Assembly (NCBI GenBank): GCA_008632985.1
Contig: QPGO01000094.1
Coordinates: 168,721 to 232,720, forward strand
Reading direction: 5' to 3'
DNA: 64,000 nucleotides
Origin: Psammoneis japonica
Lineage: Eukaryota
Shown: positions 13,195 to 47,298 of the stretch, piece by piece
How the letters are laid out: the number at the start of each line of letters is the position of its first letter
Position numbering within the stretch: position 1 is the stretch's first letter
Program-made: the position numbers and the translations under genes
Notes under the pieces: model-generated
Databases searched by the model: none
Told to the model about the DNA's origin: nothing
Seen by the model: only the letters and a program-made list of their open reading frames with translations

Positions 13195-13761
13195 AGGGCC
13201 CTACGTAGAAGATGTACGAGGAGTGAGATGCTATACTGTCTGATTTCAGATTGTCTGTCCTACTCTACACTCTAGAGAGCAGCAGCAGCTACGAGAGCAA
13301 GGTTACCTTCATGAGATGGAGAAGAATGCAATGGAAAATGGAAACTTAAGCTGGTAGCTGGGTCAAGGATTTATGGTAGTCCTTGAGCTGGGTCATGTGC
13401 TTTTCGATTGATGGCACGCGCAGCATCTCATGCATGTGCTTTTGGCAGCTGGGCACTCTGCTGGCTGGACCAACATGGCTGTCCCCATTCGAAATGACAA
13501 CCATCGTGCACAATTCAAAAGGAATTTGTTTACAAAATGTGGGCACACATTCCTCAAGCAAAAGCTTGTGAGTCACTGACAATTTTGGCCAAGTGTGACA
13601 AAGTCCACAATCTTGAACTCTTCACTTGAATCTTTCAGAATCGAGTCCGTTCCATCAACGCACACCAGCTCACCCTCGACACCAATGTCCGCACCACCCG
13701 TGACCAACACCACATCGTGTTCCTTCAGTGGAATGATCGCCAATTCCCCTGCGTTTGCTGA
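13195..13761. repeat. Direct duplication, copy 1 (partner 46751-47298): intergenic DNA plus the SPT5 3' end
   Basis: Alignable by eye from AGGGCCCTACGTAGAAGATGTACGAG through GGTTACCTTCATGAGAT to CAATTCCCCTGCGTTTGCTGA. Confidence 0.95.
13566..13761 (-). pseudogene. Mutated copy of the SPT5 C-terminal coding segment
   Basis: GELAIIPLKEHDVVLVTGGADIGVEGELVCVDGTDSILKDSSEEFKIVDFV matches 47104-47298. One frameshift, and the stop codon TAA has become CAA. Confidence 0.93.
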
Positions 13762-14042
13762 CAGATGATGGGCCAAACATTTGCCAAAAAGGCCACAGTC
13801 CGGCACGCTGAAGTCATCCAAAGACATGGACGTCAGTCATTTTTCCGTTGAGACGACATGCCAGCCCATTTCTTGAACTTGAACTTGAGCCTGCAGCATG
13901 GCATTTGTGTGCTCGCAGTGAAGAACACCAGGTTCCCCTGTGCAGAAGATGCACCTTGGGTGCACCAGCACGCAGCGAGCATGAGGAGTGAGATGCTGTC
14001 TGTCTGTCTGTTGTGCTGCCGCACCAAGATCAGATTTGCACC

Positions 14043-17000: not shown

Positions 17001-17340
17001 AGTTGTGAAGAGTCCACCCTTGGTTTCCCAAGTTTTGGTGGCGGATTTCTTCATTCCCAACTTCCACATGAATTTGCACAAAATTGTGGTTGATGATGTT
17101 CTTTGTCAAGAAGAACATGCAGAAGCTTGTTTTTTGCTTTTCTCAGAGAAGCAGCCACATGAACAGCGACGGAGGGACTGGCGCTCCTTGAGTGGTGCAA
17201 ATCTTTGATGGGAATTGATCGGGGGTCCATTTTTCCAAATTGATGGTTTTGTTCACCAAGCATTTTAGAGTCACAATTTTCACTCTTGTTTTTACGTTCC
17301 TTTGTCAAGGAACTCGCTTCAACTGTTTTTGTGAACTGCC
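14043..17340 (-). mobile_element. Old hypermutated Ty3/Gypsy LTR retrotransposon (3' LTR 14043-14411, pol relics); same family as 25717-30292
   Basis: LTR aligns to 25717-26083, with an adjacent PPT-like CTCACCTCCCC. Protease relic VLLD...WETKGGLFTT...HVD...HDVIMEHD.MSSLGITLD and RT relic HPLPNIQEM. Order is protease then RT toward the 3' LTR. 5' part truncated. Confidence 0.85.
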
Positions 17341-20300
17341 TGGGTCATCATGGAGCTCAGCTCCTCACCATCGTGTCTTTCTGGTGCTTTCTGCTTTTGA
17401 CAACATTGTGAATTGCCTTGTGGTTTCTGCACAATTTCACAACAATCAAATGTGGCATGGTTTGTGTGGGGGCCTGCAAGTGTCATTCAGTGACAGCACA
17501 GTTCACAGCTTGTGTCACGGTCAGCCATGCGACGCACATGCGGACAGACTGCACCTCGTGGAGAACAGCTCGTGCTGACTCAGTGGGGATGATGTCGAAG
17601 ACACCTCTGATGTTGCTGACGTGGATGGGTCATAGACCGTAGCAGCAGTGAGCCTCTAAAGCTCACAATGTCTTCACAAGACAGCTTGCCAAAATGTGCA
17701 CTTTGCTCACAAGACCTTTCTTGCCATGCTCGGTCTCCTTGGCGGCAGGTCAAGACAGCCCTGCCACAGCACTGCAACAGGGATGCAATGAAGGACTGTG
17801 CTGTTGTGCTTTCTGTTTTGCGCTGTTGTGCTGCAAGCACATGTTGTGATAAAAAGTGCACCAAAGCGTGCATCTTGCTCACTCCCCTTTTTTTGCCTTG
17901 CTTGGCATCTGTCTTGACAGCCACTCAAGATGGCCCCGATGACAGGCAGTGTTTTGCAGGATGATTGCAGCTTGCAAAATTTGGGGTGGAAACAAGGGCA
18001 GAGCTTGAGTGCTTGCTTTTGTGTGTCATTCTGCAATTTCACATGATGATGTGTGAAAGATTGCCAAATGTGCATTTTGAAAAAGCTCAAAAAGAAGGAA
18101 ACGAATCAAAAGAAACAACAACAGAGGTGGGCTGCAGGGTGGTTGTGTGTTCAGAGAAAGTTTGCATGATCCCACTGTTGCAAAGCTGGTGAAGGCATCA
18201 AGAACAAATCCAAACGTGTCGGTCAAGAATGGCCAGATGAAGACTTCATGGTGTGTTCAACTTGTTGGCAAAAAGAAGAAAACCAACAAGTCATTTGCAG
18301 TTTGCTCCTCCTGCTCTGTTGAATGAGCCACATTGCAAACTGTTTCGATTTTGGGATCTTGGCGTTGCCAGAATGTGCTCCCACTGTGCTTTGCTCTTGT
18401 GCTCTGCACTCTGTTGATTAAGCCACATTGTGAACTGCTCGATTTTTGGGCTTTTTGTGTCACCATGGTGTGCTCCTGCCATGGCTTTGTAGTTTGTTCT
18501 TGCCACTCTGTCAACTGAGCCGACTTTTGGGCTCTTGACATTGCACCATAAAATGCTCCCACCACAGCTTTGTGGTTCACTCTTGCCCTTCTGTTGATTG
18601 AGTCATGTTGCAAACTGTCTCAACTTTTGGGCTTTTGGTGTTGCCACAGCATTCACTTTCTCTAGTGTCAGGTGTCAAAATCACCCCCGGCATGAAACAC
18701 ATGACACGTCACTTGTTGCAAAGCCAGTTTCCCTTGAGAACTGTCCTGCAAGTGTTGGTCTCAAAAAGACCAGACGGAATTTCTCTTCCTTCTTGTTGTT
18801 GCCATGCTTTGTCCCGCAAAAGCAAATCTTGCACTCCTTGTCACTGCATGAGGCACTGATGCCATCCCTTGTCCGCAAAAGTTTGGACACACCATGATCC
18901 CTTGCAAGGGCGGCAGTCTTCCCACTCTTTCACAGTTGTTGTGACTGCACCAGTCAAGCCTCCACATGCTGCATGTTTTCTCAAGGATGTCTGCAGCAAG
19001 GGACCACACTCCAGGAAGAAGATTCAGAGACACCGAGCTCACTCACAACAGAAAGCCTGTTGTCAGAGGGCAAGACAATCCAAGCCCATCTGTGTTTGAC
19101 AGACATCTTGGAAGATTCCAGTTTGGGTCATCTTTTGAATCATGTTTTGATGTGATCAAAATGGATTTGTTTGCACTGGAGTTAGACAAAATGTGGAGTT
19201 TGCCAAAAGTTCTGGATGAGATTGCAGTGCTGGGATCACTTGGACAGATCAAAACAGGTTGCAGCTTGTTTGCCAGTGGCTTGCCCTGGTCGTTCAATGT
19301 TTGAATCCATGCTCTTCCAACCTGGGGTCATTCCACACTTTCTTCTTGTGTGGTCATTGATGACCACAATTTGTTGACATGGGGTCATTGCTGGCTGGAC
19401 TGTCAAGAAGAGCCAAAAAGCAAGGACCATTTCAAGGCCCCAATTCAATTGATTCCAACAGGATGGTGACAAAAAATGCAACAAACAGTGTGAGAAACAT
19501 TTTGACAGCAACTGCAGTGCAACAACATCGCACACAACACTGGCATTGGAGTGACTTGCCAGAAGATTTTGTGACCATTTCACTTTGGTTGTCACCCTTC
19601 TGAAATCACAGTCATTCACAAGACACACTCTTGTGCAGCTCAATGCAAGCATCTGTTGCACCATTTATGAGGGGGTGAGGCATGGGCTGTTGGCATTGTG
19701 TTGTGGTTGGTTGTCTTCTTGTGCTGGTGTCCTCTTGTGTTGCAAGTTTGAGGTTTTTGATCACAAGGAAATGGTCAGCCCAAGACAAGGAAGAAGGCAA
19801 GGAAAAATCTTTGTGCACCAAGATCTGACATGGAGTGCAAGCCCAAAAGCCAAGTGCCATTGTCACATGGAGCACAACTCACCATGACAGCCATCATCAA
19901 TGATGGACAATGCGGGTGGCCAGAGAAAGCTCAATGAGCTCCTCATTGACAAGTGCATCTGTTGAATGACTCTTCTCCCAACTTGAGCTTGTTGTGGACT
20001 CAACTGGAGAAAATGTGCTGGAAGAGAACAAGGGAGTGTTGTCTCCTGCTTGTTCTCAAGTCCTCAAGACTGTGGTGGTGCCCAAGGGAGTCTGCTTTGC
20101 TTGTTGAATTTGGTGTGTTGAAGTGTGTCAGCAGCTGCGGGCTCCAGACAAGTCGACCGCTTGATGAAATGATCATGTCAGTTGCAACTGTGCAGCAAAT
20201 TGTGATGACAATCAATTTTTCCTTGTCTGGTTTCCTTGTCATTCCTTGTCAAGGAAAGTCAGGGTCAAATGAGGAATCCTCTACAATCGAAAAACCTGTG

Positions 20301-20650
20301 CAGGTTGAAAAGAATTTTCCGGGTCATTGATGCAATCGTGAGTGTCATGTGGGTCTGGCCTTTGTGTTCCACCGTGCATTGTGACTGAGACTCATCGTCC
20401 AATCTCTCTTTGCCCAGTCTCAATTGCTTCCAAGTGGCAAAACATTTGACAAAAACCCAAATGCATGGCGATCAAAAACTGCTGTTTTTGAAAATGGTCT
20501 GTTGCTTGCTCGGGTCTTTTCTCTGCACACCCAAAGGAACCCGGGTGTCTCCATGCACAACTCCCGTGCTTCCTTCCCCATTTCAAAAACTCAGCACCCA
20601 GGTGAGTGACACCTGCTGGAAGCCTTTTCATGAGGTCACTGCCCCCTTTG
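17340..20650. other. Hypermutated unclassified repeat/TE relic DNA
   Basis: Near absence of TA and CG. No motif I can assign. Confidence 0.45.
18315..18635. repeat. Degenerate ~90-95 bp tandem repeat, 3-4 units
   Basis: Recurrent CTCTGTTGAwTrAGCCACATTGyrAACTG...TTTTGGG at ~18315, ~18409 and ~18590, plus a partial unit at ~18505. Confidence 0.7.
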
Positions 20651-20655
20651 CAAGT

Positions 20656-20968
20656 GGTGCTTCTGGTGCAGGGGGTCAGAGCTTGAGATGTGGTGCCCAT
20701 GGGGGTCATTGGGGGAAAGTGCACAAGTGCCTTTCTGTGTGAACTTGACACCATGCCATGTTGGGCACTTTTGAAAGCTCTTTTCTGACCTTGAACAAAG
20801 GCCAGCAGTGCAACTCTACATGTTCATGGTGCACAGCCACCCCACAACCACACATCCCACACAACACAACACACAACAAACAACACAAGTCACTTGTTGC
20901 AGCCAACACCAAGTGAGTCTGAGAACAGCAACAGAACCCCAGCCCACTGGATCAAAGGGGGCCAACCT
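20656..20968. repeat. ~315 bp dispersed direct repeat, copy 1 (partner 23890-24208)
   Basis: CAGGGGGTCAGAGC...GATGTGGTGCCCATGGGGGTCATTGGGGGAAAGTGCACAAG...CCCAGCCCACTGGATCA.AGGGGCCAACCT shared. Confidence 0.9.
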
Positions 20969-23190
20969 TTTCATCACCTTCTCAGGCACAAGAACAACAA
21001 GTTGCAAGATTTGTCTCAGTGCCCACACAGAGCAAGTGCTCTGCTGAACATGAGTCATTCTTGAAGCTCCGCAGAGCTGCTCTGCAGAGCACCTTTTAAT
21101 TGCCACCAGCCTGATTGCTCACAAGTGTTCTGTTGCTTCTCTGTTGCAGGAGAAACGGTTCAGTGATTGTCATTGTGCAGGATGCATTCATCTCAATCTG
21201 TTGCCAAGGGACATGGCAGAGCCCCCTCTTGTGTCCCCACACTTTGGAAAGGCAGCCAAGACCAAAACAAGGGGCAACACCAAGGAAGAGATCAAGGTTT
21301 CTGCCCTTTGGTCCAAGCTGACATGCCAAACTTGTGAAGCTTCACAAGCACTGCATTGACCTGATTGAGATGGAAAACAAAGGCAGTGCAGTGCTTGGGC
21401 CCATGAACCCATCCCTTGGTTGCCACTCCAGGAAGAAAGACGTGTGTGGAGAGCTCGCACACTCTGCTGGTGCAGCCAGTTTTCTGCAGACATTCCAAGC
21501 CAGACAGGATGTTAGAAACCAGAACACCATCTTTGACCATGTTGAAGGCACGCCAAGGATGGACAGGAAGAGTGGCAAAGCAGTCAATGGTTGGAACACC
21601 AAGATTTTTGACAACAACATTTGTGGCGGCTGCCCTCCTTTGATCTCTGACATTGTGACAGAAAAGCAAAAAGTGCACAACTTTGTTTCCTTTTTGTTCT
21701 TGCACATTCACGGCCACTCCAACAGCTGTTTGGATCTCATGGCTGCTGCCTTGCTCAGGTTTTACAACAAAATGACCAATGTGATCAAGAGCAAACCACA
21801 TGGCAAGTGGTCGGAAATTTCCACCCATCCCTTGGTGAGTGTGGTGACAGATGCTTGCAGAAGAGCAAACATGTCTGAGTGCACCTTTGACGCATTCCAG
21901 AAGCAGGTGGGAATCCATGTGACATTGGGCCCATGGAATTCTGTGTGCAAACTCTGCAGCAAAATTGTCAGGCAATGAAAATGTCAATGATCGCCAACAG
22001 AAAATGAGGCAATTTTGCGAATGCACAAACTCGTCCACGATTGAAGTGCATCATTTTTGCTCAGCCAGGTGCACTCATCAGACATTGAAGGATGCAACTG
22101 GTGCATTGTTGTTCCCATAAATTTGTCATGCAAAACATCTGGGGCTTCGCAAAACAGCAAGTCTGGACCAATTTTTTGGAATGTCACATGTGGAAATGTG
22201 TGTGTGAAACATGCAATGAATGACAAAAAACAATTGTGTCACACATCAGCACTGCAAGCTCCCACCCAGGGCTGGAACAAGTCCTTTCAGGCATGGCAGG
22301 TGGAGGTGCACAGTGGTTTCATTTCAAGGAATCTTCCTTCCCTGCCTCTCAACTGCCATCCTGACTTGCAAACCCAGCTGGTTGATTGCCAGGCCCTCAT
22401 TTCTGTGCATCAGCACAGGCAAGGATCATGGGTGGACTTCTTGGTGAGTTTCGAAAATGCTCTGCAGAGTTGCTCTGCAGAAGATGCTCTCTGAAACATT
22501 GAAACCTCATTGATCTTGGTTCATTTGCCCATGTTCTGCAACTGACAACACCAGGTTGAGAGAAGAGCTGAGTGCCCTGCGTGGCACCAGTGAGCAGGAG
22601 CTGAAGAGCAAGATGGACAGGGTGGTGGATTTGTTGCTGAATGGGGGTGGCGCTGAAGGCATTCCTGCTCCAGCAAATGAGCCAGTGACACGCGGTTGCA
22701 CACGACATGCTTGGCACACAATGGAGGTGACACCAAAGGCAAGAATCCAGCAGAAATGTTTTTTGATTGGTTTGCAATCTCCACAGTGGGTGCAAATTGT
22801 GCAAGGCTTCAACAACAGGCAAGGTGAGACAAGATGTGAAAAGTGCACTCAAGTGCCACAAGGCATTGATTGATGTGCTGCTTTGTCTTGGGGGAAGGCA
22901 CCCACAACCATGTCAAAACTCTGAAGTGCCAAGCCATTTGCAACATTGGGAAAATGAGCTTGGTCAGCTTGGCTGTGATGCACTTGAGTTGGCGAAGTCA
23001 TTCTTTGCAGCCAAAGGTGCTGACAAAGATGACATCACAAATGTCTTCTTGGCAAACAAGCGTCCCCTCCATCTGCAAAAGCCAGTCCCTTCCAGATGAC
23101 ACACCAGAGAACAGCCCTTTCCAAAAAAGGTCAAAAGTGGAAGCAAGAAGAAAAGGAGCAGCAATGTTCAAATTGGTGAACCCCAATCAG
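20969..23190 (+). mobile_element. Crypton-like tyrosine-recombinase element relic, copy A (5' truncated; ~370 bp insert at ~21910-22280)
   Basis: CHSRKK (HxxR-like motif)...DVRNQNTIFDHV (expected catalytic Tyr position). Colinear with 32800-35370. Confidence 0.7.
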
Positions 23191-23889
23191 TGTTTGAGAA
23201 AGCAGGCTGCAAACTTCACCATCTCAGGGAGGACACATTCACACTCTGCACCCAGAGCACCTCTGCAGAGCACCAGCTGATTGGAGTGCTCTGCCGAGCA
23301 TCCAACGAGACACTGCAATGATCTGCAGAGCATTTGACGTCTGCAGAGTTGATCTGTGCAAGTGTGCCCTAAGATTGCACACAGCCAAGACATTGTTGCA
23401 GAGTTTCTGTCTGCACGCTGCTCAGATTGCTGCAGAGCTGCAATCTGCACACTGCTCTGATGCAAGCTGCTCAGCCTGCAGCTTGACAAGATTGTGCTTG
23501 TCAAGGATTGCAGTGCATTCTTTGTAAATTAAGCCATTGGCAGTCAGGGTTCGGGTGCTCTTGAATTCCAATGATGCACAAGGTTGAAGCCATTGCACGT
23601 GTGCCATGCCAGAGCTTGTGTTGCATGTGGATCCCACAGTGATTTCTCCAGTGCAACCCAGGTTGGCACCATGCAGGATCACATGGGGAGGCTCCTGGGG
23701 TCAGCGGGCCAAAACCAGGGGCAGCCCAGGGAGGTGCAGTTCAAAACCTCTGCACATGCGCAGAGGTGCACAAATTGTCTGTTGTCATCTGCACACGCAT
23801 TCGCACACTCAGAGTGCACACCTCTGTCTGTGCACTGCCCTTCGCGCGGGGTCACTGTCCCCTTTTTTTTGCTCCACATGCATGCACAT

Positions 23890-24208
23890 GGCACTTCCAG
23901 CACAGGGGGTCAGAGCTCAAGATGTGGTGCCCATGGGGGTCATTGGGGGAAAGTGCACAAGCACCTTTCTGCACAAACTTGACACCATGCTGTGTTGGGC
24001 AATTTTGACTTGCTTTTGAAACCTCTTTTCTGACCTTGAGCAAAGGTCAGCAGTGCAATTCCATGTGTTCCTGTTGCACAGCCATCCCACAACCACACAC
24101 ACCACACACAACACAACAAATGACACAAGTCACTTGTTGCAGCCAACACCAAGTGAGTCTGAGAACAGCAACAGAACCCCAGCCCACTGGATCAGAGGGG
24201 CCAACCTC
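23890..24208. repeat. ~315 bp dispersed direct repeat, copy 2
   Basis: Aligns with 20656-20968. Confidence 0.9.
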
Positions 24209-25716
24209 TCTCTGGGGAGTTGACCTCACCATGGTGGACATGCCACCACATCTTTTTCAGGTGAGTTCATTTGCACTGCATCACGTTCCAAGGAAGATGC
24301 TGCACCACTGCCCTTGTCTGTGTGCTGGTTTGTCAAGCTGTGTTGATCAATGCTCTGTGGAGCATCTTCAGGACTGTGCTCTCTGGAGCAGCTCTGCAGA
24401 GCACCCCTTTGCACTTGCCACATTGCCTGTCTCACCCTGCGCTGCTTTCTCATGCAATCCCTGGACTGCACCAAATCGTGCAGATGCCATCACACGTGCT
24501 GCTTGCCGTCAATGTCTCCAGTTCTTGCTGACTCTCACTTTGCCTCCAAAGTGTTGACAAAAATTCAGCAACAAGCTGTGACAGCCACATTCGCCAAATG
24601 TGGTCACAACAGGAACACAAAGCGCCTGATTGTCCTTTGTGGCCTGCAATCTCTTGGTGGTGGTGGATTTTGATCTCTTGATGTTGAGCAGGGCATTGCC
24701 CAAATGCAACAGCTGTTGAAACATTCTTGTGGTGCACAGCATCTTGTGCAAGACGACCAACCACATGCTGCGGTCCACATTGCCATTGCATGGAATCAGC
24801 TGCACTTGGGTGCGGGTGTCAGCTTCCTCAGAGATGTCAGCACTCCTCATCCACACAGCAAGTTGCTGTGGTTTGCATCAGTTTGGTCCTTTCCACAGTG
24901 CATTGGAGGACACACTGCACTGTCCCAAGATGGTGTCCTCCCCTTGCAAAGAGCCAACAATCAGTTTTTAATGGATGTTGCCCTGGAGTCACAAGAATTT
25001 TCTTCTCGAGAGCTCCAGTGGATCAATTGTTGCCGCTTGCATCTTTGGGTCCTGACAGTCTCAGACATTGCTCTGGCAAACGGGTGTTTCTCAGATGAAT
25101 CCAAAGTTTGTGGGGATCCCATGTGCCTCAGCAGCATCAGCACTCTCAACAACGTTGAACAGACAAAACTGTGCCACCGTGCATGGGGTCCTTGGATGCG
25201 GTCATGTGGGTTGTTGTGTCATCAAGACTCAGTTCGTCTGAAAGCTCCCTCAGGAGACTGGCCAGTGCCCCCATCGAAAATGAGGATGCAATGTTCTGCG
25301 CACTGGTCTCCCAAAGAGTCATGCTTGTGTGTTTGATCTCCATCAGGATTTGATGTTTTTCCAGTCCAGGACACTGTGACTGCGTTGCCACACCAGATCG
25401 AAATGGTTCCCTCCCCCTCTGACTCATCATTCCCAGTTGAGATTGTCTTCGTTGATGATGGCAGATGGAAATGCATCCCTCATTGCCTGAAACTTTTAGT
25501 TGAAACAAATCCACCCTTGCCCAATCTTTTTGCAGACCACTTGAAAGCATTGCCTTCCTGGGAGTCCTCTCTCTTTTCTGACATTGAGTTCCACATTTCC
25601 TTTTACGAACTTGTGGACCATTTTGCATCAAGTCACCTGTTGGCGGGGAGTGACAGATCTGCACTTTATCAGGACGCCACCTTTGGATGGACTGTTGCAT
25701 TCAATGGCAGACCCTT

Positions 25717-26083
25717 TGCACTATGCTCGAAGAACGAGTGTAAACGAAAGTAGAACAGTGTACGAAAAGTGGAAATTATAAGATTGAATTTTGCTCTGTG
25801 ATTTTTGGTTTCTCCGAACGAGTTCTCAATGGCCTAAAGCTTCTGTACTGCTTCTACAGACAAAAGGCCTTTCGGAGAATATATTCGTGACAACAGATTA
25901 TCCGGATACGATTGCCATTGACACGTAAGATGTCAACATCGTCAATCGATCGTATTTGCAATTCTCGACATCCGATCAACTCTGTGTGATCGTTCTGTCC
26001 TTTGTACGCATCCACGACTGTGGTACGATTGACATATAAATAATATATAATCATAAATATGTATATAACAGTCGCATACTGCA
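25717..26083 (-). repeat. 3' LTR
   Basis: TG...CA termini, adjacent PPT, near identity to 29926-30292. Confidence 0.95.
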
Positions 26084-29000
26084 TTCGCCTCCCTAATTGC
26101 ACATTAGAGTCATTTGTAAGTGGATTATTCGACGGACATCGACAGTGTCAATAATGTCTCCACTTTCACTGTATTGTGCCATTAGCAATGACTGTTGTTG
26201 TTTTGTATAGGCAATATAGGGCCGTTCCAATTTCCGAATGTCTTTTGAGAGTGACATTGTTTGTTTCTCACTTAATATGTATATATATAGTATTACGTCG
26301 AGTATTCTCATTGACGTTCTTGTTGATATGAACACAAGGACTAATTGTCCTGGAGTAAGTGTTTTTCCTGATATCGATTGTACATAGCATCGTGCCCAGT
26401 ACTTAATGTACGCTCTTAATTATGGCGTTCACTTACTTACTTGTGGATTTCATGTAGTTTGGCGGGCTTACTTTATATGCCATATTGCTCTGCTGCACTA
26501 CCACGTTTCATAAGTAATAATAAACGATGGTCAAAGATATTATGACCATTTCGTCTTGATAATCAATCCTGTGATGGTTATGAATTCCATTATGGATTTT
26601 TTTTTTTTGTACTTCAACCATCTATCAGTTGGATTTTAATCGTTATTTGGACGTTTCTTTCTGACATACCGGTGTTATTTTGTCATTCCGAAGGCACTGG
26701 TTTCGTGCACTAAGTGGATAAATGTCCATTTTTCTTTTCTTTTTTCTAGATCTTTGGCACATCTCGTGTGTCGACATGATGTATATTTTAATGTCTTGCC
26801 TCGTACATTGTACAATACAACCGTACGGGTGTTGTGAGATTGTCTTTTGCCAGTGTGAAGTGGATACGTATAATGTATACCAATCTGTCACTGTTTTTTC
26901 CTAAATCGTCCTTTAAAAAGGCGATTTTATCCTTGTGACATGAGCATTTTTCGATCTCGCTCGCCTCCACGAAAAGTGTTCGTATGATATGTCGCGTCCG
27001 ACAATTTGGAGGGTATGTCTTTATCCCGTTTTAACGGTAGGACATTGTCGTAGGATTCAATTTTCTATAGTAAGTCGGCTGATCGCGTCTATCGCGACGA
27101 TGTTCGCCTTGCCCTCGATGTATTTTATTTCGGGACTAGAATTCTGTATTCTAAGTCGTCAACGCATGACTTTGTCCGTTGTGTCTTATGATCCTTATAT
27201 GTATAAATCTGTTGGCCAAACAGTATATTTCGGAATTTTATAAGTGTTTTCACTATGGACAGAAGTTCTTTTTTCCGTTGTAACGTTTAATATTGAAATA
27301 CGTGTATGATAACAATATAGTTTTTGATTTGATACGCTCCATATTTTCGGAGACTTTTCGTTTCGTACTTGTACTTTTGCCGTTTGACCTTTATTGAGGT
27401 GGATTTGGCTAGAAATGTACAGGAGATCATTGAGACTACATGTCTTTATAGTAGTAACGTATATCGACAAGCTGTCGTAATATTCTTTACGTTTTGCTCA
27501 ATGTTGCGATTGCCGGAATCGCCTCCATTTTCTTTGTAATCGGATGTATACCGTTACGTATGGAAGTCTTGATAATTTTTTTCAAGTTAAGTAGTGAAGG
27601 ACTTTTGTTTTTAACCTTCTAAGCGACTGTTCTAGTCGTTTGAATGCCGTTTCAAGTTTTTCTTGTACAGGTGACATTTTGAAGTTATTTTCTGTCAGGT
27701 GTAAATGTTCATTCTTAGTCGTTCTGACAACTTTAAACCTGTCATGAGTTCGCTCATGTGTTGTATGAAAATATCTGGGGCTCTATAGATTCTCATTGGA
27801 AGTCTATAGTACTCAATTTCCCCCACGGCAATATTCTGAGGTGAGCACAACGTGTGCTTTTTTTGATTTTACATTGTGGTGTTCCATGTTTGAATCGTAA
27901 TTTCATTTTTAAATCTTCAATCTTTCATAATTGGTTAAATTCCTTTCAAATGGACGCCTCCAAAGACTATGATAGGAGAAGGTTCTCACACGTCGCGTAA
28001 TCGCGTCAGATTTTTCACGGTGAGATCCACTGGTTCTTCCTATTCATGTCCAATGAACTTTTTCAAAAGGATTTTAAACCTCATAAGAAGGAGACTGAGT
28101 GGTTTATCTTCTTTTGGTTTAGATGTATTGCTGTAGCTGTCACTTGATTAGAATCGACGGCGTGATAATGTGAGTCGAGAACCATCGGTCTCGTTATTAA
28201 CTCTATTCACTGTGTGATATTTTTCAATGTGATCGGTATTCAGCTGGAACATTTTGTATCGAAGAGTGCATCAACATTCTTCATAGGGTAATTGCTTCAT
28301 TCCCATTTGATTTCTTCAATTGCGTAGTCTAGTATGATTGCAAGACTGGACATTAAGTCGCGTCCCATGATCATATCATTCGACCTTGAAGGGTATTTGG
28401 TGTTATTGACATATACTGTTTGAATATCAGTAAGTCTTAAATTTCGCATAGTGAGAACTGAATTCGGTGTTTACTATCAGTCGTAAAGAGCTCACCCTTG
28501 GTTTCCCAAGTTTTTGGTGGCGGATTCTTGTGTTCTCAACTTTCGCACGAATTTGCGCAAAATTATGGTTGACGATGTTCCGTTATCGATAGGAACACGT
28601 AGATGCTTTTTTTTTTCTCCTTTCCCAAGGAAGTATTCATATAAATGATGACTCCTGGACTAGTATGAATTATTTCTGCCTTTTTTCTAGGCTTCCTAAT
28701 ATCCAGTAAAGCATATAATTCGTGAATAGACCAAAATTATTCTTCGGATTCAATCTGGATCATCCGATCAAATTGGTATTTTTCTTCACTGAGGGTATCA
28801 GAATCTGATTCTTTGCCCTTATGCTCTTTTTCTTTGTTCAAGGAACTCGCTTTGAGTGTTTTTTGAACCGCCTGATCAATCATGACGTTCATCTCTTTTT
28901 TTGCGAGCGGCATTTTCGTTATCGCGACGCGACCGCGTGCGATTGCCATTTGAACGGCGCATTTTTGGGTCTCTTTCAGAGTCACCCTTGCACTCTTTTG

Positions 29001-29925
29001 CTAGTTCATTTTTAGAATAGCTTCAATCCGTGATGTAGGTATTCTTTTTTCAAAGATAAGACCTTGCATTCACTTTGGATTGTTCTGGTACCATGTGAGA
29101 GACCATTTTTGGAACCAAATTTGGAACCTTTTTTATTTTGGAACCAACTGCGCTATCAGAGCCTGAGTTGATATGTTTTTTCGTCACGGACGTCATGAAC
29201 GACCTTTAGATGACTCAAAACTTAATCAGCTCATCAAGGATGAGTTGCAATAGTTGATTGTTTTGGACAGTAGACTGATGCTGCCATCCTTGCGGTGCGA
29301 GTGATAGCTGATAAATCAGCGCTCGGTTTCCCGCTAGATTCGACTTAGAATCCATCTGAGGGTCGTATAGACTCTCATCGTTGACCTCTTGGGTCTATCA
29401 GAGGCTTTCTTGCTGTTGAGCGGCTCTGGTTTCTTCAGGTCGTCTCGAAGATAATTTCCCTGATTCTGAAGTGCATTTCCTCGGAGGACATGAGTTATGA
29501 GACGCTTGAGGTACTTTCCAACGATTCCATCTTGCTCTTGGACTCGAGGATCATCGATTCGGTCTCAAAAAACTCTCCAATAGTCTCTCCTTGCATGGTA
29601 GACATATTTCTCGGATCTGATCGACTCGGAACTTGCATTTTCTGCAACCATGACTTGGTGTAGATTTTTTGATAATGCGGTGTACTTGAGAGCCCTTGAT
29701 CCTTGGGTGCTTGGAATAGACCGTATTAGAGCGAATCCTCTTGTTTGGTAGACGAAAAACAGCGTTCCATCTTGAGGTACTGCTCGGCTTGAGCTTCTTC
29801 CGCTCGGAAATCGATTCCAGCAGAACTGATGCGATTCGTTCCTGTTTATAGAAGAATTTGCAAAGGCACATTAGTTAAAATCTTCATTTTCCGTGCTTTT
29901 TACCTTCTGTGGTGTGTATACACAA

Positions 29926-30292
29926 TGCACTATGCTCGAAGAACGAGTGTAAACAAAAGTAGAATAGTGTACGAAAAGTGGAAATTATAAGATTGAATTT
30001 TGCTCTGTGATTTTTGGTTTCTCCGAACGAGTTCTCAATGGCCTAAAGCTTCTGTACTGCTTCTACAGACAAAAGGCCTTTCGGAGAATATATTCGTGAC
30101 AACAGATTATCCGGATACGATTGCCATTGACACGTAAGATGTCAACATCGTCAATCGATCGTATTTGCAATTCTCGACATCCGATCAACTCTGTGTGATC
30201 GTTCTGTCCTTTGTACGCATCCACGACTGTGGTACGATTGACATATAAATAATATATAATCATAAATATGTATATAACAGTCGCACACTGCA
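29926..30292 (-). repeat. 5' LTR
   Basis: TG...CA termini, followed by TSD CCTT. Confidence 0.95.
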
Positions 30293-32049
30293 CCTTGGTG
30301 GATTGTGCTGGTCTGGTGTTTGGTCAATTGCCATCATCCTGTCAAGCTGAGGCGCATGGTTTCCTTTCACTGATTCAGTTCTTCTGTTGTTTGATTGAGT
30401 TCTGCAAGATGTCAAAGTGTGAAGGAGTCAACAACTGGTGCGACAACAAGGCCTTGGTCCAAGTCCTTTCCAGACTGTCCCACACCAGCCACCCCTCCAT
30501 TGACCTGTTGGCACAAGAGCATTCTGATGGAGACTTTCATCTGCATCAGCATGATGCCAATGTTCTTTCTTCCGACTGGGATGTCATCAATGAAATGCAC
30601 CCAATGCTTGAAGTCATTTCTCAGGTTCTTAATCCCTCCTCCCCTGGTCAGGCTCCGTCAACAGCTTGGGCAAAAGGACACCAGGACAGACAGGCTCTGG
30701 TTGAAACCCTCCCACTCAATGCACAAGCAAACGTGCGTGCTGACAAGTTGGCAGGACAACACCAGGGACAATGCGACTCAGACACAATGGAGCTGATCCC
30801 CCTTCCCCATTGCCAATCATGCCTGAGCCTCACTGATGGAACGGTCACTGCAGGACTGAAATCTGTGGTCAGATGTGCTGCTGCAGCTCCCGCTCTGCTG
30901 GCATGTGTTTGGGAAAGGAACGACTGGGATGAATCGATCACAGAAAAGATTGACTTGAAGGTTCATGCAACATCAGTGTGCAGGCATTCCAAGAAACACG
31001 TTTCCACTGTGAAGCTCATCCATGAGCTCCTCCCAACAAACAAGATTGCTCATCGACACAACCCCGTTCAGCCACATCATTGTCTTGTGTGCGAATGCCC
31101 TGTGGAGGATCGAGACCATGTTCTGGGGTGTCCTGCCAATGAGGCCTGGCATCATAAATTCCTGCAAGGTCTGCGAAAATGCTGTGACAAAATTGATGCA
31201 ATGCCACCTCTTCGCGATCTGCTGTTGACTTCACTCAAAGCATGGCCAAGAGGTGAGATGCAGTGTGAATCTGACATCACCCTGATGTTGCGAGCACTGT
31301 GGAAAGCCCAGTCAGAGATGGGATGGTGACAAGAAGTGTTCAATGGAAGACACTCCACCCTTTGGAACGTTTTTCAGGAGATGCACCTTTGTAAGATGGG
31401 CCTGTTGGAGAAATGCAGGAAGGAGAATCGACCCCCTCCAGTTTGGGGAGTGCAGATGGGAACTCAAATTTGGAAGTCCTGGTGGGAACTGTGGGAAGAA
31501 CACAATGAAAAGGTTCACGGTCACAGTGCAGAGTCAAGGAAATCATCTTTGTGCTGTCAGGCAGAAGCCGAGCTCATGGCTGTTTACAACAGCAAATGAC
31601 AGGATTATTTGGCTAAAGGCAGAGAGGTGCTGATGGATTCAGTTGACGAACACATGTCCCACTCTACATTGTGGATCATGAATTGGGTTGCTGTGGTCAA
31701 ACCACGTCTAAAAGACAGCCTTAAGAAAGCGAAGCGCGAAGTGCTTCATGGCACTTGCTCAATCGCTGGCTGTTTTGGATGGGTGTCATCTCACGGTGAC
31801 ACCCCGTCCGGCTGATCCCAACAAGCTTCCGCCGCACTTAACAGTGCACTGGAAGTGTGGGCCAGCCAGCGCCAGCCTGGCTGGCAAAGGAGTGATGGCA
31901 CTTAAAACACAGATCTGGTTTTTTTTTGCTTTCTCATGCAATCCTCCAAGGACAAATGCTGCCCATTGTGATTTTGCTGGTTGGGAAGAATCCATGATTG
32001 TTGTGGAACAAGAGCAACAGTCACTGTTGGGCACTGTTTCCCTCAATGA

Positions 32050-35000
32050 CAGTGGTCAGCAGCTGACTTGGGAGGAAGCTGCGTGCTCAATGCTGCCCCA
32101 TTTCATGTGCGTTGCAACCACTGATCTGCAGAGCACCCCAATGGAGAATGGTGATTCTGCCTCAGCATGCACAAGTGATCATGGCACCTCTGGTTTGGTG
32201 CTTGCTCCCTGTGGTGAGCAGGGGGCTGAGGAGACAGAGAAAGACAAAAAGGAGAGAAAGTGCCTTGGTCACTTCAGGCGCCACTTGTTGCACTGCAGGA
32301 ACACACGTGTGGCCGCAGAAGATCTCCGCCATGAAGACATCACCCATGATCTCATGAAAGGGTTCACCAAGTGTCTTGCCAAGGATGCCAGGTTGCAGTT
32401 CAAACTGGAAGGGGACCATCTCTCTTTTGGATTGGCTGCAGGCTGTGCCAGCACTGCCAAGATGCATTTTGTGAACAAGTTCCCTGACTGTCCAACCCCG
32501 CCCACTCTGCAGGACTCAAAGTGGACCAGCACGCTCAATGGAATGAAGGGCATCATCTTGGATTGTTGCAGGATGGAAGGAACTGATGTTGTGAAACCCC
32601 ACAAAGCCTCAACTGAGGAAGACAGGGAGGCCTGTGCTGCTGTCTGCCTCCATGAAGGAGATTCGGAATCTGCCAAGTTTTGCTTTCATTCGGTGTCCAT
32701 GCAAGCCTGTGTTGGCCGGAGCACCAAAGTTGCTCTGTCACAGAAAGCCAATCTGTCTGTGGAGGTGCAGCACAAGGAGACACTCACCTGTCCTGTCATC
32801 ATTCATTGCCTTCTCAGGCACAAGAACAACAAGTTGCAAGATTTGTCTCAGCACCCGCACAGAGCAAGTGCTCTGCTGAACATGAGTTGTTCTTGAAGCT
32901 CTGCAGAGCTGCTCTGCAGAGCACCTTTTAATTGCAACCAGTCTGACTGCTCACCAGTGTTCCATTGCTTCTCTGTTGCAAGAGAAATGGCTCAGCAATT
33001 GTTGTTGTGCAGGATGCATTCATCTCATTCTGTTGCCAAGGGACATGGCAGATTCCCCTCTTGTGTTCCCATGCTTTGGAAAGGTGGCCAAGACCAAAAC
33101 AAGGGGCAACATCAAGGAAGAGAGCAAGGTCTCTGCCCTTTGGTCTGAGCTGTGTGCCAAACTTGTTGTGAAGCTTCGCGAGCATTGCATGACTTGATTG
33201 AGATGGAAAACGAAGGCCCGCCCATTTTTTTTCCCAAACGTCCATCATTTTTTTTTTGGCGGCAAGCCCAATGTTTGTGTTCAGACCTTCACACATTTTA
33301 TGACAAGCAATCAATGCTTGTGAGTTGTCGATCAATGAAGTTAAACATCCCAAAAATGCAAATGCTTTGTGTGTGTCAGATTGCATGGTGTGGACAACCC
33401 ACATGGAACAACACACCTGCAAACACAAATGTTTGACATTTCAAATTTTCCACAACTTCTCAAAATGCAACAACAATGGTGACTGCAAATGCAACACACT
33501 CCATCAACAACCACAAACTCACCATGGCACTGCCACATGTCAACAGCTTGTAATTCATTTCAAATGCATGTGCCTTGCTGTGCTTTGAAATTGATTCATT
33601 GCAGCAAAAACAGCTGAAATGTTCAATTTTCTGCCCATTGCTTTTCGACCACACACAAGTCAACAATGAGCTTGTTGCACTCTCACATGTCAATTGTGCT
33701 GCACACAAGTTGACAAGATGTGATGTGCTGTTGATTGTTGTGGCTCTTTGGGGCAATGCCATTGAGAAAATGGTGACCACAGAGTCACCATGGTGAGGTG
33801 GTTTTTGCGGTTTCCAGCTGCAGTGCACCAACGGTGAACTTGCACTGAATCTGAGTCATGCTTGTTGAGTTGGCATGGCTGCCGCTTTGCGCATCATGTG
33901 CCCACCATTCTCAGTGCTGGGGCTGGCAGCAAAAAAAAAAGGCAATTCACCAGGAAAAAAAAACAACTAAGAAATGAAGGCAAGCAGTGCAGTGCTTGGG
34001 CCCTTGAACCCATCCCTTGGTTGCCACTCTGGGAAGAAAGACATGTGCAGAGAGCTCACACTCTGCTGCAGCTGGTCTTTTGCAATGTTCTGAGCCGGCT
34101 GGGATGTTAGAAACCAGAACACCACCTTTGACTGTGTTGAAGGCATGCCAAGGATGGACAGGAGGAGTGGCAAAGCAGCCAATGGTTGGAACACCAAGAT
34201 TTTTGATGACAACATTTGTGGTGGCTGCTCTCCTTTGATCTCTGACATTGTGACAGAAAAGCAAAAAGTGCGCAACTTTGTTTGCTTTTGTTCTTGCACG
34301 TTTGCAGCTGCTCCAACAGCTGTTTGGATCTCCTGGCTGCTGCCTTGCTCAGGTTTTACAATGAAACAACCAATGTGATCAAGAGCAAACCACATGGCAA
34401 ATGGTTGGAAATTTTCACCCATCCCTTGGTGAGTGTGTTGACAGAAGCTTGCAGAAGGGCACACGTGTCCAAACGCACCTTTCAGACATGGCAGGTGGAG
34501 GTGCACAATGATTTCATTTCAAGGAATCTTCCTTCCCTGCCTCTCAACTGCCACCCTGACTTGCAAACCCAGCTGGTTGATTGCTGGACCCTAATTTCTG
34601 TGCATCAGGCACAACCAAGGATCATGGGTGGACTTCTTGGTGAGTTTTGAAAATGCTCTGTGGAGCAGCTCTGCAGAAGATGCTCTCCGGAGCATCAAAA
34701 CTGCACTGATCTTGGTTCACTCACCCACATGTTCTGCAGCTGACAATGCCAGGTTGAGAGAAGAACTGAGTGCCCTGCATGGCACCAGTGAACAGCTGAA
34801 CAGCAAGATGGACAGGGTGGTGGATTTGTTGCTGAATGGGGGCGGCGCTGAAGGCACCCCTGCTCCAGCAAATGAGCCAGTGACATGCAGTTGTGCATGA
34901 CATGCTTGGCACACAATGGAGGTGACACCAAAGGCAAGAATCTAGCAGAAATGTTTTTTGATTGGCTCCAGTGCAATCTCCACAGTGGGTGCAAATTGTG

Positions 35001-35370
35001 CAAGGCTTTGACAACAGGCAAGATGAGACAAGATGTGAAAAGTGCACTCAAGCACCACAAGGCATTGATTGATGTGCTGCTTTGTCTTGGGGAAGGCACC
35101 CACAACAGAGTCAAAACCCTGAAATGCCAAGCCATTTGCAACATTTGGAAAATGAGCTTGGTCAGCTTGGCTGTGATGCTCTTGAGTTGGCAAAGTTGTT
35201 CTTTGCAGCCAAAGGCACAACAAAGACATCACAAAGACCTTCTTGGCAAACAAGCACCCCTTCCATCTGCAAAAGCCAACCTCTTCCAGACAACACACCA
35301 CAGAACAGCTCTTTCCAAAAAGGTCAAAAGTGGAAGCAAGAGGAAAAGGAGCAGCAACGTGTTTCAATGA
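32050..35370 (+). mobile_element. Crypton-like tyrosine-recombinase element relic, copy B (insert at ~33210-33975)
   Basis: LSFGLAAGCASTAKMHF, VGRSTKVA (GRxxE-like first Arg), HSGKK, RAGWDVRNQNTTFDCV. Colinear with copy A. Confidence 0.7.
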
Positions 35371-38300
35371 GCAGTGATCACCTCCATTTTGTGGGGAAAA
35401 AACCATCAAATGATGAAGTGGATGGATGTGTTTCAATGATCATGTCTCTCCCTGAAACACTGTCATCCGAACAAACTCTTGGTGTCTTGCTTTCCTTTTC
35501 ATGCACAAGGAATTTGGTTCTGCTGTTCCTTTTCTCCAAAAATGTGATTTGAGAAAAAAGCCGTGAAGCTCATTTGTGGGTGCACGTGTTCAACAGTTGT
35601 TTCTCAAATCATGTTTTTGGAGAAAAGGAACAGCAGAAGCAAATTCCTCACATGCAAAAAGGGGAGCAAGACACTGATTAAATGTCCCCCCATGTGCCCA
35701 ACTCAGACAGTTTGCACGTTCAGTCAAAAAGACAAACAAAGGGGTCCTGGGCAGCCTTTCATCAGCTTCAGACCCTGGATTGCCCCCATGTGTGTTCAAC
35801 GGACACCTTTGCTTGAACACAGTGTCCAACAGGTGTCACAAAGCTGTTGGCACACAGGGACATTTAATCAAAAGATGAATGAAGGTTGGGGTCAGAGTCC
35901 CTGTGATGACCTTTCTTTGTGCAAACATCCTTGGAGCCATGTGCATGATGGACCACATCAGGTGGGATGCCATGCACGCAAGCAAGGGATGAAACACACT
36001 GTGACATCATCCAGTCAACAACAAACCCTGACAAATTGAGCAGCCAACTGGACTTGCGAGAGATGGCAGGAACCTTTCTCCTCCATGGAACTTTGTGTGG
36101 TGTTGCTCTCCCATTGGGCATCATCACATGTTGTTGTCAAAAGTGAAGGCAGTTTGTGGCAAGAGAACATGTCTTGGGACATGCAGGAAGCAGAGCCAAG
36201 CAGAGGCTTTCTTCTCCAGTGTCCCAACTTGACATGTCTCATGCTGCTTCCAAGGGATCTCGCCATGACCACCTTGGGGATGACTTTGACACAACCATTG
36301 CACTGCACACCAAAACAAAGGTTCTTCACAAGCAAAACAAGAGCCTTCAGAAACAACAAATGGACCAGCTCTCTTGTCCATTGTCACCAATGGTCAGGCA
36401 AAGAAGGAGCCAGACACTGAGACAACCCACAATGGCAAGATCTGCACTTGCAGCATGTTTGCAAGCCAAGACTTTGACTTGGAGTTAAATCAAGAATGCC
36501 CAAGAGACTGGTGGGTTGGAAGCTGAAAAAGGTCCCATTGCAAGCTGTTTGTTCCCATGGCAGCACAGCAGCGTGCTTTCAGCTGTGATGTCAAGAAGGG
36601 CCACAAATCATGCAACAGCTTGATGTCCTTTCTGAACTTTGGCACATGTCAGCAGACCATTTCTGCCACTGTTAACTGCCCACAGCTTGGCAGTGCTTCA
36701 TTCAACATCTGCTGGTGCAGTCTCCTCATCTTGCTCCCTTCAAGCAACCACATTGGCAGTGGCGGGAGGCAGCAATCTTCCCCATGCCCTTGACTGCCAT
36801 CCTGTCTCATGGCAGTGCACAACACACGCATCATGGCAGACCATGCTGCCATTGCTGTGGGCTTCCAAATGTCTGCCTTGATGGCACCACTTTTGTCAGC
36901 TGGTGTCAGCAGCACACATTTTGTCAGCATTCATTGGCATTGTTGCTTTCACAGCAACTCAAAGTCATGGCAGACACAAACTGACAACAAGTGGCAGAAG
37001 GGATGGCAGCCCTCAGCCATGCAGACCTGATGCCACTCTGCTCTGCCCTGCTTGCCAAGTGACTCTGCATCCAACACAACAAGCACTGACATCACTCTGT
37101 CTTCTTTTTTCACTTGAGCTCTCTTTTTCAACTGATCAACTAACTCGCAAAACCAAGCATCGCGGCTGTTCATTCTGGCGAGCACATGAACTTGACACAG
37201 TGGCAGACCAACCCAACATGATGCAAGCAGCAGCAAAAGGATTGGCCCTGTTGAGAATGGATGGCACTTTGCATCTGTCCAGGCAGACAGGTGCCACAGA
37301 TGCTGTGACACATTGGCGATGAGTTGCCGCAGGTTGGTTGGGGTGTCCGCAGCAGCGCAGGTTGCTTTCCACTGGCACTGGTGCCAGATGGTTCATGTGG
37401 ATGTGCACTGAAATGGACCCCAGCTGCTGGACTGTTTGCCTGTTGTGTGGCCCTTGTCACCTTTGTCACGTTGATTGTGTGGCACTGAAGTGTTCATTTC
37501 TCACCCTTTCTTGGAAGCCCCACATGTGTTGAGGCTGCTTCTGCTTCTGTTGTGGTGTGGACCGACTGACCAGCACAAGAAACTGACAACAATTCACAAT
37601 TTACAAGGAGCCGCTGCATGGCCATGTTGGGTGGTGCTGAAAAAGGATGCCCCCTCCTCCACAGCTGAGTGATTTGCCTCAAAGCCAACAACCAACCGCA
37701 CACTCAGGACCACAGACCAAAGTCAACACTGCAGAGGACAATCCACAAAGCTGCCAGCACCTTTTCATGGCTCTTTTGAGTGCTGCAGTGCAGCATTGGT
37801 GCATCAGCAGAACTGCAGAACTGGAGTTGTAGATGACAACACTGTCATGTGCACTCAGATCACAATGCAAACATGCTGCCAAATGCGCGAAATGCGCTGC
37901 GTGTGTGCTTTCTTGCCACTCTGCCGCGTGCACTTTGTGGGGTCTTGGCCAGGGTGGGGCCAGTTGGTTGTGCACATTTGGGTTCGATGTGGCCACCCAA
38001 CTTGGTGGTTGGTGCGAGCAGAAGTTTCAAAAAGCAAAAAACACGCGATGGTCAAAATGTTGTAAAATGACACAAAACAACAAACAATGAGAAGAAACCC
38101 AACTTTGCTTGGGAGTGCAGCACACAAACATTGTCCAATCACATTGATCTTCTCTGGCACAATGCCGGCAAGCAGATCAGTGAACAATGCTCGAGTTGCT
38201 CGCCATGGTGTTGTTGTGTGTTGCCGTCATGCTGCTGTTGCACGCGAAGGGCTGGGTTGCACATTGTCTTTTTCGGCAGCGGCAGATGTTTTGCCACATT

Positions 38301-38440
38301 CAATCTGCAAACATTTTGAGAAGTGCTTTGGGGCGACCCTTGAACGGCATGTTTCGGGGTGTCCCTCACTTTTTTGAATTTGGGCATGCATCTCTGCAAG
38401 ATCAAAGAAAGAGTTTGATGACATGTAAAAACCTTGAGAG
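35370..38440. other. Hypermutated unclassified relic DNA
   Basis: TA/CG depleted, with overlapping Cys/His-rich spurious ORFs. No assignable motif. Confidence 0.45.
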
Positions 38441-46750: not shown

Positions 46751-47298
46751 AGGGCCCTGCACAGAAGATGTGCGAGGCAGGAGGCAAGGAGTGAGATGCT
46801 GTCTGACTGCATGTTGCACTTTAGCTCTAGCTAGAAAAGGTTACCTTCATGAGATAGAGAAGAATGCAATGGAAAATGGAAACTGCAGCTGGTGGCTGGG
46901 TCAAGGATTTATGGCAGTCCTTGAGCTGGGTCATGTGCTTTTCGATTGATGGTACGCGCAGCGTCTCGTGCATGTGCTTTTGGCAGCTAAAGGTACTCTT
47001 CTGGCTAACATGGCTATCCCCATTCGAAAAGATGATCATCGTGCATAATTCAAAATGAATTTGTTTAGCCTACAAAATATAGGTACACATTCCTCCAAAA
47101 ACCTTATGAGTCACTAACAATTTTGGCCAAGTGGACAAAGTCCACAATCTTGAACTCTTCACTTGAATCTTTCAGAATCGCATCCGTTCCATCAACGCAC
47201 ACTAGTTCACCCTCGACACCAACGTCCGCACCACCCGTGACCAATACCATATCGTGTTCCTTCGGTGGAATCATCGCCAATTCCCCTACGTTTACCGA
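46751..47298. repeat. Direct duplication, copy 2 (partner 13195-13761)
   Basis: See copy 1. Includes the functional SPT5 stop codon. Confidence 0.95.

Follow-up and report, generated by a model that had tools for sequence, protein, structure and literature searches.

Two Crypton-like copies in the window

We analyzed 64,000 nucleotides of the diatom Psammoneis japonica (assembly GCA_008632985.1, contig QPGO01000094.1, positions 168,721 to 232,720, forward strand; the whole stretch is called the window), which carry two degraded copies, A and B, of a Crypton-like tyrosine-recombinase element. A preliminary description of this DNA proposed that both copies had lost the codon for the catalytic tyrosine, one to histidine and the other to cysteine. 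The codons are as described: copy A reads TTT GAC CAT GTT, with CAT at 21538, and copy B reads TTT GAC TGT GTT, with TGT at 34133. A and B are dead Crypton-type copies, and their catalytic Tyr codon fell to a process turning TpA into TpG or CpA, with one hit on each strand of the palindromic TA. Taken as a whole, together with the mechanism proposed below, we think this explanation very probable. The features of the two copies are as follows.

20970..23167, plus strand: copy A, a Crypton-like tyrosine-recombinase element, frameshifted, with its 5' half gone and interrupted by a repeat (self-BLAST with copy B; family profile)
21032..21149, plus strand: putative phase-0 intron in copy A (donor GCAAGT in A and B, GTGAGT in the copy on contig C233)
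21171..21173, plus strand: second conserved Tyr column, with His (CAT) in copy A and Cys (TGT, at 33003) in copy B (Tyr in 69 of 81 family members; position 292 of relative P0017)
21424..21438, plus strand: H-S-R-K-K motif of copy A, the HxxK version of the recombinase HxxR box
21496..21498, plus strand: conserved Arg codon; copy A has CAA and copy B has TGA (34091), a TG/CA pair that stems from CpG and not from TA (profile Arg 0.47)
21538..21540, plus strand: catalytic-Tyr column of copy A, CAT (His), TA to CA (family Tyr 111 of 123; profile Tyr 0.79 versus Arg 0.02)
21886..22283, no strand: high-copy repeat of ∼400 bp within copy A, not in copy B
32231..35360, plus strand: copy B, nearly full length, with stops and frameshifts (profile E 1.5e-42, 8e-24 and 7e-31)
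33218..33983, no strand: insertion of ∼770 bp splitting copy B (gap between self-BLAST pieces)
34133..34135, plus strand: catalytic-Tyr column of copy B, TGT (Cys), TA to TG

Self-BLAST aligned A and B in three pieces at 87–90% identity, giving 1785 columns with 171 mismatches. Adjacent double mismatches numbered 47, and 33 of these read TG in one copy and CA in the other, far above chance (the runner-up class, AC/GT, had 4). Hence the claim that many aligned sites are discordant in this way holds. The motifs described upstream of the site were recovered in part: HSRKK is present in copy A, and HSGKK and AGW are present in copy B, but copy A has RQD in place of the family xGW. The first catalytic Arg of copy B (GRS) lies near 32717, and an in-frame TGA separates its HSGKK and AGW motifs. 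Neither copy is an active tyrosine recombinase with an intact open reading frame (ORF) and a catalytic Tyr; both have His or Cys at the site, along with stops, frameshifts and insertions. The register of the second Tyr column in A and B is read across the putative short intron, whose GCAAGT donor may represent the loss of a splice donor by TA to CA change. One further discordant pair, Trp/Gln at 21505 (A) and 34100 (B), has no simple fit to either a TA or a CpG origin. The insert in copy A is supported by the assembly of run X1 (joint 21875–22283); it has >140 protein-level matches in the genome and a depth of >10,000 in that run.

Identity of the recombinase family

Searches with the ORF of copy A gave nothing useful in Pfam, homolog or Atlas (<0.9) searches, because mutations and the inserted repeat mask homology; its 150 genome matches were mostly to the inserted 400-bp repeat. 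Contig C233 carries a more divergent copy, which led to an intact 659-aa relative, P0002 (E 2.8e-16), in which GRGSE, HSQKK, RSGW and LLEY stand in register. At E 0.001, a search with P0002 recovered 485 proteins, and column counts were taken from the best 150 of these 485 plus P0002. A profile of the intact relatives matched copy A at 21334–21909 (E 1.7e-45, with additional pieces reaching 23159) and copy B as listed above. Together with the Cre/Flp-like fold of the family, this establishes the proposed tyrosine-recombinase homology of both copies. The expected catalytic series R...HxxR...H/W...Y is largely retained in the family, with R in 104/107, H in 108/122, and W in 106/125 just before the conserved nucleophile Tyr. 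The exception is the second Arg: the residue three positions after H is K in 95 and R in only 25 of 121, so that HxxK, not HxxR, is the rule. HxxK also dominates family alignment A4 (65 K and 15 R of 81) and is possibly a catalytic variant of tyrosine recombinases.

An AlphaFold model of relative P0017, made from the 81-sequence alignment A4, had a predicted local distance difference test score of 88.7. Its best structural match was Cre (Foldseek E 3.3e-5; Z 16.0, root-mean-square deviation (rmsd) 4.0, 263 aligned), followed by Flp (Z 15.1, rmsd 4.2, 221 aligned) and then by Xer, Tn1549 and lambda integrases. The model has the catalytic fold of Cre and lambda Int, preceded by an N-terminal core-binding domain. 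Its match to Tn1549 Int stops at model residue 390 (chain residue 375), 4 residues short of Y379, so equating the model Tyr (396) with Y379, a residue taken from the title of the structure entry, is an extrapolation in which the residue itself is not superposed. The relationship to recombinases in the PDB is seen by structure alone and not by sequence: a PDB sequence search with P0002 found no recombinase, and one with the family profile found only coiled-coil noise.

In the Atlas, P0002 falls beside clusters from oomycetes and diatoms; families of Ndc10-like and phage-integrase type rank lower. Pfam detected no recombinase domain above cut-off among 42 relatives. GCR1_C matched none of the 42, though Pfam had also missed the recombinase domain of these same proteins; one diatom Atlas cluster of similar fold carries GCR1_C in 71%. 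Upstream of copy B are nine CATGG/TGTGG words, none of which defines an element end, the ends being truncated or mutated. CryptonS termini are 5–6 bp direct repeats, mostly TATGG, in the available text of Kojima and Jurka (2011, PMC3212892). The host, a diatom, is a stramenopile, as expected of CryptonS; a host gene in the window likewise has diatoms alone among those of its relatives that carry a name. We therefore call A and B Crypton-like; as judged from these sequences, membership in CryptonS is likely but not proven.

The ancestral codon

CAT and TGT can each be derived from TAT or from CGT. The residue conserved in the family (Tyr 0.79, Arg 0.02 in the profile) decides in favor of TAT, as the preliminary description had supposed. 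Natural intact relatives thus served in place of the restored consensus that it had suggested. Tyr occupies this column in 111/123 relatives and in 76/81 members of alignment A4, and the 12 relatives without Tyr have His (6), Cys (4), Ser (1) or Asn (1). Nine proteins with <0.8% Tyr overall show His (4), Cys (3), Asn (1) or a gap (1) at the column. None of the five genome copies reaching across the site has Tyr: His stands in A and in those on contigs C233 and C4, and Cys in B and in that on C61; a sixth copy (C1) ends short of it. Across the profile's Tyr positions in the copies (n = 52), Cys appears 20 times, His nine times and Tyr twice. Independent hits on opposite strands of TAT, as originally proposed, are the expected outcome of the TA process measured on the young LTR (long terminal repeat) family described below.

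The alternative is an ancestral CGT (Arg) from which ordinary methyl-CpG deamination produced both CAT and TGT, making a TA process unneeded. In its favor, the blocks around A and B are poor in CpG too, and CGA is the source of one TG/CA pair (21496/34091) or more. Yet Arg is found in none of the relatives, against Tyr in 111/123, and TA changed ∼17 times as often as CpG within the mutated tracts. We regard an Arg origin as already largely refuted and give it almost no credence. Not every TG/CA site is a relic of TA: some arose from CpG, such as the Arg pair CAA (A)/TGA (B). Searches of the 91-Mb genome, which give lower bounds only, turned up no intact Crypton copy.

TA-erased blocks in the window

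Both copies lie in DNA from which TA has been nearly erased. The relevant features, none assigned a strand, are these.

13380..25716: TA-erased block 1, holding copy A (0–5 TA per 500 bp between 13501 and 25500)
14043..17151: TA-erased, old member related to the young element at 25717..30292
25717..30292: young element bounded by long terminal repeats (LTRs), almost untouched, between the erased blocks; its family serves as yardstick
30293..38425: TA-erased block 2, holding copy B (TA counts; edge positions)

In 2-kb bins of the blocks holding A and B (18001–24000 and 32001–38000), the observed-to-expected ratio (o/e) of TpA was 0.03–0.06 and that of CpG 0.13–0.21; for most gene-rich bins of the window the two values were about 0.5–0.7 and 1.0. 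Only 62 TAs remain in the two blocks (∼19.7 kb), 21 of them in TTAA. The element between the blocks has 367-bp LTRs that are 99% alike, TGCA ends, a CCTT target duplication and normal TA content. At its 207 TA sites, the old relative reads CA at 79, TG at 78 and TA at 8.

Two other observations concern the erased DNA. A 457-bp stretch at the block edge (13299–13756) is duplicated at 46837–47293, and of the TAs in the copy at 46.8 kb, 14/17 read TG or CA in the copy at 13.3 kb, where only 4/18 CpGs have changed. Long, nearly Tyr-free open frames occur at 30253–31329 and 24674–25336; one has a weak zf-RVT match (E 0.017), and they are probably remains of a non-LTR retrotransposon that stay open because TA loss deletes stop codons.

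Tracts of TA change in a young LTR family

The family of the young element was used to follow the process. Of 379 candidates in the genome 40 were scored, 34 were retrieved, six without two full LTRs were removed, and the window copy was added; a natural copy, L076, served as reference for 28 copies. The family is ∼4.7 kb long, with at least 40 copies, TGCA ends and a 4-bp target duplication, which matches at 26/28 listed loci. The longest ORF of the unmutated L076 is ≤158 aa, marking a non-autonomous element.

TA changes in the 28 copies fell into 42 tracts, of which seven were short, 32 measured 988–3620 bp and three spanned the element. Inside tracts, 3648/5179 TA sites (70%), 147/3675 CpG sites (4%) and 588/64090 other bases (0.9%) were changed. 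Outside, the corresponding counts were 161/3410 (4.7%), 19/2260 and 195/34341 (0.57%), CpG and other changes common to at least three copies being left out. The TA contrast is partly circular, in that tracts were defined by TA state, and this weakens the case to that extent; the tests on CpG, on other bases and by shuffling escape this circularity. CpG loss within tracts was five-fold that outside (p 1e-14). TA changes were clumped, with a block variance of 0.088 that exceeded all 500 shuffles made within copies (0.010) and all 500 made within sites (0.023).

Paired LTRs date the changes. In 29 elements, LTR pairs showed 349 TA differences (246 one-sided, 103 TG versus CA), along with 13 CpG differences and 43 among 7679 other bases. 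Because the two LTRs of one element differ at TA sites, the changes postdate insertion. Among often-hit sites, 253/270 displayed both TG and CA. There were no runs of one strand within tracts (0.511 versus 0.501, a value reached by 56/500 shuffles) and, across 40 tracts, the strand ratio was not overdispersed; this speaks for many separate events and not for a single processive pass. Strand-coordinated mutation bursts, also considered, are supported by neither test. The in-tract A>G rate was 0.46 for TAC, 0.44 for TAT, 0.22 for TAG and 0.18 for TAA, and adenines outside TA changed at 0.000–0.015. The process is thus DNA-level and post-insertion, acting site by site on both strands, mostly in sharply bounded tracts of 1–3.6 kb. 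It is ∼2 times faster at TAY than at TAR and runs far ahead of CpG decay, which later completes the old blocks.

Tracts could instead be imported pieces of old TA-erased copies, acquired by recombination or gene conversion, or assembly chimeras. Their sharp, recurrent edges and the 60.5% agreement of copies on the outcome fit such an origin. Other bases within tracts, however, differ by only 0.9%, as against 190/1229 for the window's own old erased copy. The presence of both outcomes at 253/270 sites and the matching target duplications at 26/28 loci also count against it, and we consider this origin very improbable.

Changes were fewest at ∼1000–1900 of the LTR reference (in-tract share 0.32–0.53, versus 0.8–0.9 at 2250–4250), and tract ends recur at ∼1060–1160 and 1910–1980. 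The low-change stretch and shared ends suggest, from their positions in the sequence, a protected stretch or a fixed chromatin boundary.

Artefact checks and metagenome loci

Stretches of 859, 744, 513, 297 and 287 bases of the erased block were free of substitutions in contigs of run X1, and three other pieces had 1–2. Runs X2 and X3 yielded almost nothing. This check covers the erased block and not the LTR tracts, X1 may be the assembly's own source, and 96 difference rows lie outside the count. Among 39 metagenome loci of the Crypton family, 27 had a Tyr codon and a TA o/e of 0.43–0.76; 11 had His or Cys (CAT, CAC, TGT or TGC) and a TA o/e of 0.06–0.37; and one had a gap. TA-poor loci thus made up 11/11 of the His/Cys class and 0/27 of the Tyr class. 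Several of these loci come from common assemblies, and at 97% the 27 and 11 loci form 14 and 8 clusters. They show, at the level of sequence, that the TA signature extends past this genome, though its range is not thereby defined.

These data bear on two other possible sources of TA loss, base miscalling where bases are modified and the editing of RNA in the course of retrotransposition. For miscalling, substitution-free matches of up to 859 bases and the occurrence of the signature in independent metagenome contigs are difficult to accommodate. RNA editing is excluded by hits on both strands, by discordant LTR pairs and by a DNA transposon among the targets. Taken together, the two have scarcely any likelihood.

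Duplicated C5-methyltransferase-like loci are also TA-erased (L123, L124, L125 and L129, on contigs C301 and C297, and L132 on C28). They contain 6–23 TA per 3.5 kb, versus 98–168 at other methyltransferase loci; the genome has 27 PF00145 matches.

Candidate mechanisms

We give roughly even weight to an adenine deaminase, of TadA/ADAT or ADAT1/ADAR type, acting at silenced chromatin. Such an enzyme would be recruited to silenced, probably CG-methylated, chromatin domains and would convert the A of TpA to inosine, which replication would turn into fixed G across many rounds. This scheme is favored because of the TA/TAC preference, the five-fold in-tract CpG loss and the candidate deaminase genes. 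In the accessible text of PMC8065034, the TadA-derived editor ABE7.10 (ABE, adenine base editor) prefers TA and TAC contexts. In Phaeodactylum, loss of DNMT5 abolishes DNA methylation and de-represses young transposons, according to the available part of PMC9998398. Candidate genes in this genome are ADAT2-like (contig C26), TadA-like and two PF02137 genes, whose presence does not imply activity on DNA. The PF02137 adenosine-deaminase genes are two, not one, on contigs C40 (L172) and C79 (L173); the second may be an ADAT1 paralogue or ADAR-like. Separately, a tandem dCMP-deaminase gene with two domains occurs on C41 and C317 (L109, L110) in nearly identical, possibly allelic haplotigs that are not TA-erased.

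Chemistry at thymine would leave the same palindromic footprint. Oxidised or O4-alkylated T mispairs with G, so a modified T in TpA would yield T>C, and the spectrum is strand-symmetric, equally describable as RTA to RCA. Direct evidence for a modified T is lacking, however, and the TAY preference is TadA-like. We rate thymine modification as unlikely. A Tet_JBP search found no match in the genome, but its control was equally silent, so it is no evidence either way.

Resynthesis of kilobase repair patches in methylated repeats by an error-prone, Pol eta-like polymerase that misreads T in TA would account for tract length, and the background is higher inside tracts (0.9%) than outside (0.57%), mostly from T>C and A>G. 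The Pol eta motif is WA, yet AA adenines changed at 0.002–0.009, which is not raised, as compared to 0.07–0.16 at TA. Nor did tracts show the strand runs or overdispersion of single-strand patch synthesis. Error-prone resynthesis therefore seems to us quite improbable, more so than thymine chemistry.

Several points weigh against the explanation as a whole. The ancestral codon rests on relatives ∼30–43% identical and on a genome in which no intact Crypton copy was found. The LTR sampling (40/379 scored, six dropped) favors young copies. Agreement between copies, 60.5% versus 54.1% expected from 4-mer context, means that some changes may be inherited. The near-intact element at 25717–30292 lies within erased DNA, and flank TA content is alike beside mutated and unmutated LTRs (p 0.37), which lends no support to spreading or homology-dependence. 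By sequence alone, A deamination and T modification are inseparable. The deaminases found resemble ordinary housekeeping genes, and none is tied to the process. Finally, the base 3' to the target has little effect on ABE7.10 in the available text of PMC8065034, versus a two-fold effect here.

Consequences for mobile elements

The preliminary description held that the process would reliably kill Tyr-dependent enzymes. Tyr codons (TAY) are indeed preferred, so that this holds in old blocks, but the damage is general missense and not Tyr-specific. When in-tract rates were applied in simulation to three intact relatives, ∼4–6 of 15–18 Tyr were left, with ∼20–31 amino-acid changes and no new stop. 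Elements would thus be disabled by general missense change, as these sequences predict, and perhaps by splice-donor loss. Because A and B carry insertions, frameshifts and truncation besides, Tyr loss cannot be demonstrated as the lethal event.

On balance we lean toward genome defence, which would work through dense missense change and loss of Tyr codons and splice signals, not through stop codons. The tracts may instead arise passively, from some base modification or chromatin mark that silent DNA carries, with no selected defence; they disregard element boundaries, make no stops and show raised CpG loss, and duplicated methyltransferase-like genes are affected too. The extreme specificity and speed, and the on/off difference between Bigelowiella natans lines noted in the available part of a preprint, argue the other way. 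We rate a by-product as distinctly less probable than defence, without dismissing it. A more specific form of the defence view, to which we hold only tentatively, is that diatoms possess a dedicated inverse of repeat-induced point mutation, or RIP, whereby a natural DNA adenine deaminase, common to rhizarians, rewrites TAY on both strands over kilobase chromatin domains of mobile DNA. If true, eukaryotes would have a mutator that is old and widespread, and nature its own adenine base editor acting on double-stranded DNA; it would wipe out Tyr codons as well as splice donors and TA target sites.

At the level of a single codon, the His/Cys pair is a clean trace of a mutator that works against the direction of RIP and of the usual AT-biased mutation. 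If confirmed, these findings extend a process known from one rhizarian preprint to diatom transposons and give its geometry (tracts, strands, TAY preference, post-insertion timing). They would also mean that LTR-divergence dating is biased, that transposon families are hidden from homology searches, and that long Tyr-free frames are false ORFs, and they would point to a natural enzyme for A:T to G:C change in DNA. The young LTR family offers a ready test substrate.

Comparison with known systems

We found the TpA to TpG/CpA process in print only for one unrelated alga, B. natans; the literature searched, which leaves most subscription papers outside its coverage, yielded no report of it in a diatom. 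In the available part of the preprint on this alga (Mettrop et al., bioRxiv 10.64898/2026.01.13.699255), integrated viral DNA shows a TpA-only spectrum at a ∼1000-fold rate in some lines only, and an ADAT2-type deaminase is proposed but not shown. The two cases are alike in changing TpA to TpG or CpA on both strands, regionally and in foreign or mobile DNA. Here too, transitions are confined to TpA and host genes are spared, with the exception of the duplicated methyltransferase-like genes. The targets in B. natans are integrated nucleocytoplasmic large DNA virus (NCLDV) and virophage DNA, and its TpA-poor coding sequences are enriched in transposon domains; here the host belongs to the diatoms rather than the rhizarians, and the targets are DNA transposons and LTR elements. 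TpA o/e falls to 0.03 here versus 0.45 in the B. natans NCLDV region. Kilobase tracts within young elements, the TAY preference, the lack of strand runs and the raised in-tract CpG loss are absent from the accessible portion of that account. The B. natans account, for its part, includes a measured mutation rate. What is new here is the family-level proof of an ancestral Tyr, the tract structure of 28 copies with matched CpG and background rates, and the link between Tyr and TA in metagenomes.

The process also resembles fungal RIP, in that dense, dinucleotide-specific transitions strike repeated mobile DNA on both strands, and diatoms have DNMT4 enzymes related to RID (PMC9998398, available part). 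The direction is reversed, however: RIP changes C:G to T:A and creates TpA, whereas here A:T becomes G:C and TA is destroyed. Moreover, no stop codons are made, and tracts span only part of a repeat.

The elements themselves are closest to the CryptonS of oomycetes and Phaeodactylum tricornutum, which, in the available text of PMC3212892, share a stramenopile host, a single tyrosine-recombinase gene and low copy number. CryptonS are there described as free of GCR1_C, for which the 42 relatives gave no match within the limits of Pfam noted above. In the Atlas, the closest clusters consist of proteins from oomycetes and diatoms. They differ in that the present family mostly has Lys for the second Arg of R-H-R-Y. 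Cre and Flp share with the intact family the fold and the order R...H...W...Y, but at only 10–14% identity, and the copies in the window are pseudogenes.

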